IMG/VR virus record: IMGVR_UViG_3300045988_119600
Strand: one strand, 5' to 3'
DNA: 30,429 nt
DNA from: a virus
Both the position numbers and the translations under genes were made by a program. A model generated the notes under the pieces. That model saw nothing but the letters and a program-made list of their open reading frames with translations, was not told the origin of the DNA and did no database searches. Below are positions 19,997 through 23,278 of this stretch, piece by piece. Each line of letters begins with the position of its first letter. Within the stretch, counting starts at the first letter, position 1.

Positions 19997-20551
19997 ATGG
20001 CAATTCCAAAAGCAATAGAACATATGCGTAGTGGAAGTGGTAGTTTAGAAATTATTCCAATTACTTCTACTGATGGATTAACTTACATAGGAACCGCAAA
20101 ATCTATTAAAGAATATAAAGACGGAATGATTATTGGCCTTATTCCAAATATGAATAATGTTGCGACAAATCCAATTACTAATATAACAATAAATATAAAT
20201 AATTTAGGAGCATTAAAATTAACTCAATATTATATTAAAAAAGAACATTCTAATAATGGATTAGGATGTTGGCATTAGAATACTGCTGTAGAAGCAAATT
20301 TTCTATATAAAGATGAAGCATTTATCGGATAGATACAATTAGGGTCATCCAGTGGTGATTATATTTTACCCATTAATCCAGGATTAGACTTAGCTTAGAT
20401 TACTAATGGTTCTATGGGATCTAATTTATCTGTCACTACTAATTCTTCTTATTTAAACAATAATATTTTAAGAAATATTAAAGTATCCACTTCTGCTCCC
20501 ACCGCTTCAGACGGAAATGTTGGAGATATTTGGATTTAGTATTTCACTTAA
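19997..20551 (+). CDS. Tail-fibre/baseplate-associated protein (184 codons) with four in-frame TAG codons. The track shows only 19997-20278
   Basis: RBS taaggagg. Frame is open from 19997 to TAA 20549-51 except for TAGs. The next gene's RBS and ATG follow immediately. Confidence 0.55.
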
Positions 20552-20567
20552 TAGAGGAGGAATTTAA

Positions 20568-21980
20568 ATGCCAAATACTTATAATCCTTCTGGAACTTCT
20601 ATAACAGATTATTCTTCTATTAAATTTATTCCAGGAGATATTATTAATAGTAGCTATTCAGGAGCGGTAAATCCAGTAAAACTTCCAGCGGGAAATTATC
20701 AATTAGAATGTTGGGGTGGCTATGGCGGAATTGGTTATTCTGGTTCTTTAACTTCATCAACAACAACTTCATGGATATATATAGGAACTCATAATGCGAC
20801 CAGTTATTTTACTGTTAATGATTCAAATTATTATTTTCGTCAAGACGGAAATGACTGGATAGCTACTAACGGAGGAATAGATTCAAGTACTGCTACAACT
20901 ACATTAACTTGTACTTCTGGGGGGACTTATAAATTTTCATATTATTATAAAACTGAAGCAAGCTATGATAAAGTCACTTTAACTGTTGGAGGAAATACAG
21001 TTTTAAATGCGGTTTCTGGATCAAGTTCTCTTACTACTACTGGCACTTATTCTTTATCATCAGGATCTACTATCGTAATGACTTATACTAAAGATAGCTC
21101 AAATTCCGTGGATAATGAAGAAGTTTATTTTTAGATTTAGAAATAGGAAAGTAATACTACTTATACTCCTGCGAGTTCAAAAAATAGTTATTGGGGTGGA
21201 ACAGGAGGATATTCTATAGGAATTCTTTCTTTACCAGTTCCTACCACTATTTATTTATACACCGGGGGGCATGGTAGTTATTCAAGTGATAGTGAAAAAG
21301 GTAAGATAGTTAATGGTGGATTTAATGGAGGAGGTAGCTCTAGGATTAGATGGTATACTTCTGCTTACACATCAGGTGGAGGAGGCGGAGGAGCTTCCGA
21401 TATCCGCGTAGGTCAAGACTCTCTTTATGCCCGTGTAATTGTTGCCGGTGGTGGTGGTGGTGGCGCGGGAGAAAGTAATTCTTCTATTAAATAGGGTGGC
21501 GGATTGACGGGTAACTCTGCGGTTGAAGAATATAAGGCTACATAGACTAAAGCAGGAACAAATGGATCTTTTGGTCAAGGTGCTGATGCTAGTGGATCTA
21601 CCAATTATAATTATGGTCCCGGTGGTGGTGGTGGTGGCTGGTATGGCGGTGGTGCTTCTACTAATGTTAGTGATAGCTCTGCTGATTATAGAACTTATAA
21701 TGGGGGAGGCTCTGGCTACGTATATACTTCATCAACTGCTTCTAATTATCCTTCTGGCTGTTTGTTAAACAATAATTATTATTTAACAAATGCCTCTACT
21801 ACGATAGGCTATAGTAAAACTAATCCTGGAGGGCAAAATGGATATATTCGTATTACAGTATTATCTCCTTTAAATATAAAAATCAATTCTAATACTTATG
21901 CTCCTACTAAAGCTATATATATAAAAACAGATAGTACAACTTGGAAAGGAGGAGACGTTACATGGCAACTTACGACTTAA
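20568..21980 (+). CDS. Glycine-rich repeat tail-fibre/receptor-binding-like protein (470 codons) with five in-frame TAG codons
   Basis: The track's 20568-21134 and 21762-21980 are one frame. The Gly-rich motifs (GGGGGASDIRVG..SLYARVIVAGGGGG, GGGSGYVYTSSTASNYPSGCLLNNNYYLT) are shared with the next gene. Confidence 0.6.
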
Positions 21981-23278
21981 CTTCTTCAATTCCTTCTTCT
22001 TCTTCTTTAAAAACAGGAGATATATTAAATTGTCCTTATAGTGGAACTTATAAAAATATTGCCCTTCCAAAAGGTACTTATAAATTAGAATGTTGGGGGG
22101 CTTAGGGAGGAAATGGTGCTAATAGTAACTCTAGTTTTGACGCTTCTTCGGGAGCTATAGGAGGAAAAGGTGGATATTCAACGGGAATTTTAACTCTTTC
22201 TTCCTCTCAAACGGTATATTTATATACTGGTGGAAAAGGAGGTTGTATTTCTTCTTCTGCTAATGATTATACAGGAGGATTTAATGGAGGCGGTACTGGA
22301 GGAGTCTCCGGATCTATGTCTCGAAGCGGTGGTGGTGGAGGAGCTTCTGATATTCGTATTGGATCAAACTCTCTCTACGCTCGTGTAATTGTCGCCGGCG
22401 GAGGCGGAGCTACCTCTTGGGGATCTAATACAGAAAGCGGAGATGCCGGTGGGGGCACCAGTAGTGTAGCAGGGTCTAATAGTCCAGGTCTAAGTACACA
22501 AACTTCAGGAAATAGCTTTGGAGTAGGAGGAAATGGATATTCATCCAGTTCTTCTTATAATATAAATGGAGCTGGAGGAGGCGGCTGGTATGGTGGAATT
22601 GTTTCACTCTCTAATATGCAGGGTGGAACAAAATATCATGGTGGCGGAGGTTCTGGTTATGTATATACCTCATCCACTGCTTCTAATTATCCTTCTGGTT
22701 GTTTGTTAAATAGTAACTATTATTTAACTTCTGCATCAACTATCGCAGGTAATTCTTCATTTATTTCTCCAACAGGGTCATCTGAAACAGGTCATGGTGG
22801 AAATGGCTATATAAGAATTACTATTTAGTCTATAGCAAATTGGGCTTATTCTACTGTGTCAATATCTGCTCCCACTTATAACAAATAGAACACCTCTTCT
22901 TGGACTTTATCTCCAAGCACTTGTCGATATTTTTCTTTTACTCCTACTATTTCAGGGGACTTTATTGTTTATTCTAATTCTTCAATAGACACTTATGGTT
23001 ATTTAACATCAAGTATTACTTCTCTTAATGATAGTGGATAGCCTTCTTCTAATATTTTAGCTAGCGATGATGATTATGCAAAAAAATATGGCGGTACTGG
23101 AGCTAATTTTGGTATTTGTTATAAAGTTACGGCTGGAACTACTTATTATATATATGTTAAGCCTTATCGTGATAGTACAGCAAATAGTTCAGTATATTTA
23201 ACTTATTATATGGCTCATCCTGACAGTAGAGTATATGTAAAAACAGATAGTACAACATGGAAATTGATAACCAATTAA
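21962..23278 (+). CDS. Paralogous glycine-rich tail-fibre-like protein (438 codons) with at least four in-frame TAG codons
   Basis: RBS aaggagga 8 nt before ATG 21962. Contains track ORF 22316-22828. 'CWGA[TAG]GGNG' aligns to 'CWGGYGGIG' of the paralog. Continues through TAGs to TAA 23276-78. Confidence 0.6.

Follow-up and report, generated by a model that had tools for sequence, protein, structure and literature searches.

In this study, we analyzed a 30,429-nucleotide (nt) stretch of viral DNA (IMG/VR record IMGVR_UViG_3300045988_119600; hereafter, the window) and focused on three consecutive plus-strand genes at 19997-23278. The results suggested that this region is probably a self-contained accessory tail-fibre cassette of a phage of about 190 kilobases (kb) that reads TAG as glutamine. 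The first gene, g1 (19997-20551), encodes 184 amino acids (aa) and contains four in-frame TAG codons, whose first bases lie at 20276, 20330, 20396, and 20537. The second gene, g2 (20568-21980; 470 aa), contains five such codons (21135, 21141, 21147, 21495, and 21546), and the third, g3 (21962-23278; 438 aa), contains four (22103, 22826, 22886, and 23039). All three genes end in TAA.

The coding status of the cassette was evaluated under both codes. Under the standard code, 19997-23278 falls into short open reading frames (ORFs) and each gene splits into pieces, as would be the case if the genes were decaying pseudogenes and the TAGs true stops. When termination was restricted to TAA and TGA, the three consecutive ORFs appeared, with no in-frame TAA or TGA over 184, 470, and 438 codons in g1, g2, and g3, respectively, compared with 10-40 in each of the other two frames. 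We then compared g1-g3 with their orthologs in the related contigs L001-L006, using the region 3' of the first TAG. In this region, third-position substitutions prevailed (20, 15, and 68 at codon positions 1, 2, and 3 for g2 versus L001), and synonymous codon changes exceeded replacements by about 2:1. In addition, the TAG positions were mostly kept in five relatives, and full-length orthologs of the cassette genes numbered in the hundreds. The lack of in-frame TAA and TGA, the third-position bias, and the conserved TAGs together indicated that g1-g3 are translated genes under purifying selection downstream of their TAGs, not decayed ones. The conservation of the TAGs in relatives and the selection pattern past them refuted pseudogene decay, to which we give practically no chance. 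The preliminary description of this DNA, made from the sequence alone, had proposed three TAG-laden genes in which TAG is a sense codon, and this part of it was confirmed. The ribosome-binding sites of all three genes were strong: AAGGAGG lies directly 5' of the g1 ATG, and g3, whose start overlaps the end of g2 by 19 nt, has GGAGGAG 7 nt 5' of its ATG. A g1-g2 fusion by read-through or frameshift was also considered, as the conserved motif described below lies at the very end of g1, and was rejected. Because g1 and g2 lie in different frames with a TAA between them, and g2 has its own GAGGAGG ribosome-binding site, we treated them as separate proteins.

Both g2 and g3 matched the ALK/LTK glycine-rich domain of Pfam (PF12810), with E values of 3e-34 (119.5 bits) for g2 and 2e-45 (156 bits) for g3 against a gathering cut-off of 24.5 bits; on g2, the match covered aa 205-432. 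BLASTP aligned the two proteins with 47% identity over 260 aa (E 2e-25) and also aligned an N-terminal block, GDI(I/L)N...LECWG (E 2e-9), in addition to a C-terminal YxKTDSTTWK block. At the DNA level, the repeats shared by g2 and g3 measured 101 nt (85% identity), 80 nt (76%), 54 nt (78%), and 32 nt (94%). These results demonstrated that g2 and g3 are glycine-rich paralogs with the shared blocks that the preliminary description had quoted. The 32-nt direct repeat, which encodes YxKTDSTTWK, is present on the plus strand at 21916-21947 and at the end of g3 (23232-23263); the two copies are identical at 30 of 32 positions and bracket g3.

The two paralogs differ in their additions to the common domain. 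In g2, about 150 aa (aa 56-204, nt 20733-21179) are inserted after ECWGGYGG and split the domain; this insertion is retained in homologs down to approximately 50% identity. In g3, a TNF-like and polyglycine domain (aa 1-290) is followed by a C-terminal beta-sandwich (aa ~310-438). Neither the g2 insertion nor the g3 C-terminal domain had a significant sequence match in Pfam or the PDB; a C1q match (E 0.064) found in this search was discarded as not significant. The AlphaFold2 model of a g3 ortholog (P0001, 95% identical) had a mean predicted local distance difference test (pLDDT) score of 73, with high values in the domain core, and a Foldseek search of this model against the PDB was significant for ALK/LTK only. 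The fold of PF12810, a TNF-like beta-sandwich with a polyglycine-II lattice, was recognized in the cassette, as was a structural likeness to an experimentally located tail-fibre or tail-tip protein. The matches in BFVD included cyanophage entries named 'virion structural protein'.

A closely comparable protein is gp24 of cyanophage Pam3, a tail fibre similar to ALK and to S16 gp38, in which the variable distal ends of the glycine motifs are the proposed receptor site (PMC9608196). The receptor-binding tip of Pam3 gp24 (PDB 7YPX) uses the TNF-like beta-sandwich and polyglycine-II fold, as we propose for g2 and g3. It differs in having its own N-terminal helical shaft, which docks to the baseplate, whereas g2 and g3 begin directly with the beta-sandwich. 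A Tfa-like chaperone gene lies downstream of its gene; in the cassette, a small motif-bearing protein is encoded upstream of g2 and g3. Additions relative to Pam3 gp24 are the C-terminal beta-sandwich of g3 and the 150-aa insertion within g2, and the sequence identity is 18%. The TG ectodomain of ALK/LTK (PF12810; PDB 7LRZ, 7NX3, and 7LIR) has the same fold but belongs to animal receptor tyrosine kinases that bind ALKAL cytokines, and g2 and g3 lack the kinase, the membrane anchor, and the EGF module; the name 'receptor protein-tyrosine kinase' given to phage homologs stems solely from the shared domain. In T2-type gp37-gp38 systems (S16 gp38, PDB 6F45; PMC12892980), a separate glycine-rich adhesin with hypervariable segments between its glycine motifs caps the C-terminal tip of a fibre protein whose gene lies just upstream, which is the logic proposed here for g1 followed by g2 and g3. 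The fold of gp38 itself, a beta-helix with a three-layer polyglycine sandwich, was not found in the cassette proteins. Further polyglycine relatives are the 'tail wing brush' gp33 of Bxb1 and other tail-tip 'brush' domains of siphophages (PDB 9D93; PMC13243795, PMC13243192), although Bxb1 gp33 belongs to the tail tip of a mycobacteriophage siphovirus, with a different domain arrangement and no recoding.

The TAG codons in g1-g3 are most likely read as glutamine (code 15), judging from codon comparisons. CAA was the commonest ortholog codon at TAG columns (6-8 columns), even though two substitutions are needed to reach it. In g1-g3 together with a GIY-YIG endonuclease gene (26352-27131), we counted 17 TAG and 16 CAA codons and only one CAG; in TAG-free genes, CAG and CAA were used about equally. 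In the genes that use TAG, it apparently replaced CAG. The signature C-W-G-A-x-G-G gave a further line of evidence: x was glutamine in 159 of 180 instances from the fetched loci, including phages without any in-frame TAG, and the codon at this site in g3 is TAG. In other gut phages, TAG was assigned to glutamine by mass spectrometry (PMC9523058). The window contained no convincing case of TAG as a terminator: every listed gene stops at TAA or TGA, and the two frames that seemed to end in TAG, at 7071 and 8885, stay open until a TAA just ahead of a terminator or of the ribosome-binding site of the next gene.

None of the 16 transfer RNAs (tRNAs) of the window is a tRNA(CUA). The closest relative, L004 (g3 95% identical), carries one at 20628-20717, approximately 9.3 kb downstream of g3 in the same tRNA array, at a position that corresponds to just beyond the end of the window. 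It was identified by ARAGORN and by Rfam (56 bits), and L031 likewise carries a tRNA(CUA). In L004, this gene comes after a small ORF, with no consensus promoter nearby. The L004 tRNA(CUA) is atypical, with 90 nt, a long variable arm, a U1-U72 mismatch, and G73, so what it is charged with can be proposed only tentatively. A long variable arm is found in serine, leucine, and tyrosine tRNAs, and the D and anticodon arms resemble those of the tRNA-Trp of the window phage (23450-23522). Moreover, g2 has tyrosine (TAT) where g3 has TAG in ECWG(G/A)xGG, and some TAG columns aligned with serine, tyrosine, or histidine codons, which were rarer than CAA. These observations weigh against glutamine and would fit another amino acid (tyrosine, serine, tryptophan, or leucine) or merely low-level read-through. 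U1 and G73 presumably fit bacterial tRNA-Gln. Considering also the prevalence of CAA, the near absence of CAG exactly where TAG is used, the CWGAxGG site in standard-code phages, and the mass spectrometry of other gut phages, we regard a reading of TAG other than glutamine as quite improbable.

The family of g1 is characterized by its two ends, an N-terminal MAIPKxxxxMR and a C-terminal STSAPTASDGNVGDIWIQYFT. The homologs of g1 have this N-terminus or variants of it in common and contain unrelated middles; their C-terminus is near-invariant, R-N-I-x-V-S-T-S-A-P-T-x-S-D-G-x-x-G-D-I-W-I-Q-Y, with the family form STxxPTxSDGxxGDIWIxY. Some members carry a Phage_fiber_2 repeat (PF03406, E 2e-16 and 4e-16) or an ATKNYVD fibre motif; the matches of the ATKNYVD segment were all weak and fell exclusively on chains of tail fibres, tailspikes, and phage hyaluronidases. 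On these features, g1 probably encodes a short fibre or adaptor protein. We then scanned 3605 ORFs of at least 60 aa from the window and 56 fetched loci for the motif P-x(2-4)-G-x(2-3)-GD-x-W-[IVF]; the loci had been selected for having a glycine-rich gene and were covered for 10 kb on each side. The motif was present in 80 of the 3605 ORFs, always 3-15 residues from the C-terminus and always on the strand of the glycine-rich genes. These 80 ORFs represented 21 distinct proteins of 91-335 aa, one of which, that of L008, has repeats resembling collagen. In 18 of the 21 types, the motif-bearing ORF stops between -43 and +21 nt relative to where a glycine-rich gene starts. Over the 10 kb covered on either side, the motif had no occurrence away from the glycine-rich genes, and the pair of motif-bearing gene and glycine-rich gene is present in standard-code and recoded phages alike.

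Because the motif-bearing proteins directly precede the glycine-rich genes, we infer that the g1-type proteins may act as shafts or adaptors and the glycine-rich proteins as separately encoded tips. A broader form of this proposal, to which we give slightly less than an even chance, is that many gut and other phages, both recoded and standard-code, possess a two-piece fibre in which a motif-ended shaft is capped by a separate ALK-type adhesin, which would parallel T2 gp37-gp38 with another fold. The shaft or adaptor would vary in length from 91 to more than 700 aa, would sometimes be collagen-like, and would end in STxxPTxSDGxxGDIWIxY; g2 and g3 would be alternative caps in competition for a single adaptor, with strains exchanging the polyglycine lattice of g3 as a cassette. 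If this is true, STxxPTxSDGxxGDIWIxY would serve as a portable docking rule for retargeting such phages. As a separate observation, radical S-adenosylmethionine (SPASM-like) genes lie beside glycine-rich genes in three lineages (L011, 16182-17513; L044, 13710-14984 and 14977-15939; L031, 5038-6237), and the post-translational modification of glycine-rich proteins could be their function. No such gene was found in the window.

The three genes varied between strains in different ways. g1 and g2 were 80-100% identical to their orthologs along the entire length, and for g2, more than 80 database clusters showed 86-97% identity over 100% of the length. g3 contains a hypervariable central cassette at 22100-22700 on the plus strand (aa ~47-250), which corresponds to the polyglycine lattice. 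The DNA identity of this part to L001, L005, and L006 was 35-65%, compared with 85-100% in the flanks. Among 75 g3 orthologs, the first 46 aa were on average 95% identical and the last 150 aa 90% identical, and the central 200 aa were on average 53% identical; the 75 centres formed 11 discrete types when clustered at 70% identity. The constant parts form the beta-sandwich core and the C-terminal domain. The preliminary description had taken the duplicated genes as a sign of host-range modularity. Strain variability focused on the putative binding region bore this out for g3, with its 11 centre types between conserved flanks, but did not for g2, which is uniformly conserved. A diversity-generating retroelement was considered as the source of the variation and was rejected: the variants differ by indels and at 45-55% of residues instead of at adenine-specific template and variable repeats, the sole repeats in the cassette are the paralogous g2/g3 blocks, and no reverse transcriptase was present among the searched ORFs.

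The genomic context provided evidence on both sides of the tail-fibre reading. The relatives of the window are contigs of 160-198 kb. In the 192.8-kb genome that contains the g3 ortholog of L006, a second, paralogous cassette (L038; 8203-11536 of contig IMGVR_UViG_3300045988_126226) lies approximately 26 kb downstream of that ortholog and directly after several bona fide tail-fibre genes. Its genes are, in order, one resembling g1 (159 aa), one of 440 aa, and a glycine-rich one of 511 aa. This context within the same lineage supports the tail-fibre-like reading of the preliminary description. The 440-aa protein of L038 has a carbohydrate-binding-like N-terminus, and its C-terminal domain is common to the 511-aa glycine-rich protein. 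Phage L011, which uses the standard code, has glycine-rich genes in tandem, with tail-protein genes on their 5' side and an endolysin gene on their 3' side. The glycine-rich proteins of the C. difficile phages phiCD119 (ORF30) and phiCD27 (PMC2843621), which we likened to g2 and g3 by description, belong to the same domain family and are encoded at the tail-fibre/lysis junction of Firmicute phages.

These last examples would also suit a different role, in which g2 and g3 are non-virion accessory cargo (moron, toxin-like, or surface-modifying proteins) that is released at lysis or acts on the host envelope, and the variable centre reflects an arms race unrelated to adsorption. The C. difficile proteins are encoded beside the holin, in a typical moron position, and a function as toxin-like cargo has been suggested for them (PMC2843621). 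Endolysin genes are direct neighbors of the glycine-rich genes in L011 and L050. The window cassette itself lies between uncharacterised TAG-free genes and the tRNA array, not within a tail module and apart from recognisable structural genes, and the PHROG families that match g2 and g3 are all of 'unknown function'. Other points also weigh against a tail fibre. g2 and g3 lack a fibre shaft and an N-terminal helical anchor such as that of Pam3 gp24, and g1 had no Pfam or PHROG match. The AlphaFold2 model of g1, obtained through P0121, was too poor (pLDDT 59) for a fold search or for judging docking. The C-terminal domain of the P0001 model was predicted with low confidence (pLDDT 35-70). We consider the cargo role unlikely, and the putative tail-fibre-like assignment is supported by the fold of g2 and g3 and by the conserved gene context.

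According to the tail-fibre reading, g1 would be a short fibre or adaptor subunit whose invariant C-terminal motif is the docking site for separate tip proteins, and g2 and g3 would be these tips, built on the TNF-like beta-sandwich and polyglycine-II lattice. In g3, the beta-sandwich core and the binding-module-like C-terminal domain would stay constant and the polyglycine region would be exchanged between strains, which would change receptor specificity. g2 would provide a conserved second specificity with an extra inserted domain. Because about half of the glutamine codons of g1-g3 are TAG, full-length proteins would be made only when the amber-suppressor tRNA of the phage is active, and their synthesis would be expected to be confined to the phase after expression of the tRNA array.

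The regions around the cassette were examined for transcription signals. An intrinsic terminator on the plus strand at 19881-19910, with a 13-bp stem, a 4-nt loop, and a T run, ends the upstream TAG-free block, in agreement with the preliminary description. It is followed by the cassette leader (19911-19996, plus strand), which contains TATAAAT at 19944-19950, then TTTTAAAT, and the Shine-Dalgarno sequence before the g1 ATG. Across five relatives, identity over the 86-nt leader was 87-100% and persisted in those with another upstream gene and terminator, which suggests that the leader carries its own signal, possibly a promoter. A mosaic junction was observed at this point: the upstream 101-aa gene (19572-19877) and the terminator are swapped in L004 and L005 for an unrelated gene and a different hairpin, and identity with both contigs resumes exactly at the leader. 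The window contains six perfect TTGACA-N17-TATAAT sigma-70 sites (chance expectation 0), all on the plus strand, at 11794-11822, 16244-16272, 17087-17115, 23287-23315, 23857-23885, and 25325-25353; three of the six have the identical spacer TTTT(T/A)(A/T)AAAAAA(T/A)A. No such site was present between the terminator and g1, in line with the absence of the early promoter motif noted from the sequence. The site at 23287-23315 opens the downstream tRNA array and marks the 3' boundary of the cassette.

TATAAAT-like sequences had also been proposed to stand in for the early motif at the cassette. The heptamer at 19944-19950 is present and conserved in five relatives, but TATAAAT occurs 18 times on the plus strand of the AT-rich window and is so common that it alone is no evidence of a promoter. 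A similar arrangement of TATAAAT and TTTTAAAT lies upstream of the TAG-containing minus-strand gene at 567-1190. A shared 'late promoter' composed of these two elements was rejected, as two sites in the window, with the orthologous site alone in relatives, are too few to define a motif.

The use of TAG differed strongly along the window. TAG accounted for 13 of the 24 glutamine codons in g1-g3, compared with about 3 of roughly 140 in the block at 1.6-19.9 kb. In recoded phages, TAG is enriched in structural and lysis genes, and genomes of about 200 kb can contain recoded modules at scattered places (bioRxiv 10.1101/2021.08.26.457843). Late timing and suppressor-dependent control of the cassette, which we infer by analogy, would fit this published pattern. 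The recoded gut phages described to date (crAss-like, Lak, and 'gemstone' clades; bioRxiv 10.1101/2021.08.26.457843; PMC9523058) likewise concentrate sense TAG in structural-type genes and keep it out of other genes, where it serves neither as a codon nor as a stop. They also have large genomes (about 180-198 kb in the relatives of the window), scattered recoded modules, and a suppressor tRNA(CUA) among the phage tRNAs, a gene seen here in L004 and L031. Searches of 50,697 GenBank phage records with the cassette by blastn and tblastn gave no match; glycine runs may have been masked by the low-complexity filter, but the non-repetitive C-terminal domain was likewise without a match in these records.

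Several observations stand against a strictly late use of TAG. The codon is also present in the GIY-YIG homing endonuclease gene (26352-27131) and in the replication-protein-like minus-strand gene (567-1190), and single TAGs occur in three genes of the otherwise TAG-free block (7071-7073, 8885-8887, and 16399-16401). These findings would be expected if the cassette were not separately timed but reached by transcripts that start at the sigma-70 promoter at 17087 and read through, and if TAG had no regulatory role beyond a genome-wide code 15. One of the three early-looking genes (16297-17097) lies directly behind a perfect sigma-70 promoter and a ribosome-binding site and has its TAG at codon 35, and the cassette promoter is putative in DNA in which TATAAAT is common. 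However, a strong terminator precedes the cassette, the leader is conserved regardless of which gene and terminator lie upstream, and the TAG enrichment matches the structural and lysis-gene pattern (bioRxiv 10.1101/2021.08.26.457843). We therefore judge the absence of separate timing to be rather unlikely. Past its TAG, ORF 6603 runs on for another 45 codons, and the TAA that ends it directly precedes a terminator hairpin; in ORF 8678, 13 further codons lead to a TAA that abuts the ribosome-binding site of the next gene. The single-TAG genes could yield short and long products before and after suppression, respectively.

The recoding of structural genes and glycine-rich fibre tips have already been described, and current views are not overturned by these results; the cassette would be a real but largely familiar kind of host-range module. 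What appears to be new is the combination of stand-alone TNF-like/polyglycine tips in tandem, the g2 insertion, the variable centre and extra C-terminal module of g3, and a motif-bearing adaptor. Annotation of uncultured large recoded gut phages is difficult, and few of their host-recognition proteins are known. The cassette offers a three-part candidate: a fold known from the solved structure of a tail-fibre tip, a swappable region of g3 with sharp borders, and a motif by which the partner protein can be recognized in several lineages. If confirmed, the motif and the cassette boundaries could help to locate receptor-binding modules in such phages and to swap them. In addition, the TAG-rich cassette would be a convenient reporter for whether recoding delays expression.

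Further features were observed outside the cassette. The GIY-YIG homing endonuclease gene lies inside the tRNA array, contains four in-frame TAGs, and matched Pfam (E 4e-10) and PHROG (E 3e-34) families; in relatives, other endonuclease genes (GIY-YIG, HNH, and PD-(D/E)XK) are located elsewhere in the array. The first gene after the promoter at 23287 is a tRNA-like gene (23358-23428) with a clean cloverleaf and a 6-nt anticodon loop. Its orthologs lie at 11381-11451 in L001, 11391-11461 in L004, 10701-10771 in L005, and 10632-10702 in L006. The window has CUUCAA as the loop sequence; among the relatives, three have AUUUAA and one has CUUUAA. The central triplet would accordingly be UCA or UUA, the complement of the stop codon UGA or UAA, respectively. 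This gene was not named by ARAGORN, fell below the Rfam tRNA threshold in L004, and showed no covariation by which its function could be judged. At the other end of the window, the divergent intergenic region at 1257-1381 contains four to five copies of a repeat of about 22 nt, TATAGAAATTTTTGACCA, and both the sign of the guanine-cytosine skew and the gene orientation change near 2-3 kb. The minus-strand gene at 567-1190 encodes 207 aa with six in-frame TAGs and gave weak PHROG matches to ScpB and replication helicase families. Together, the region at 1257-1381 and this gene look like a replication origin with iterons and an initiator-like protein.

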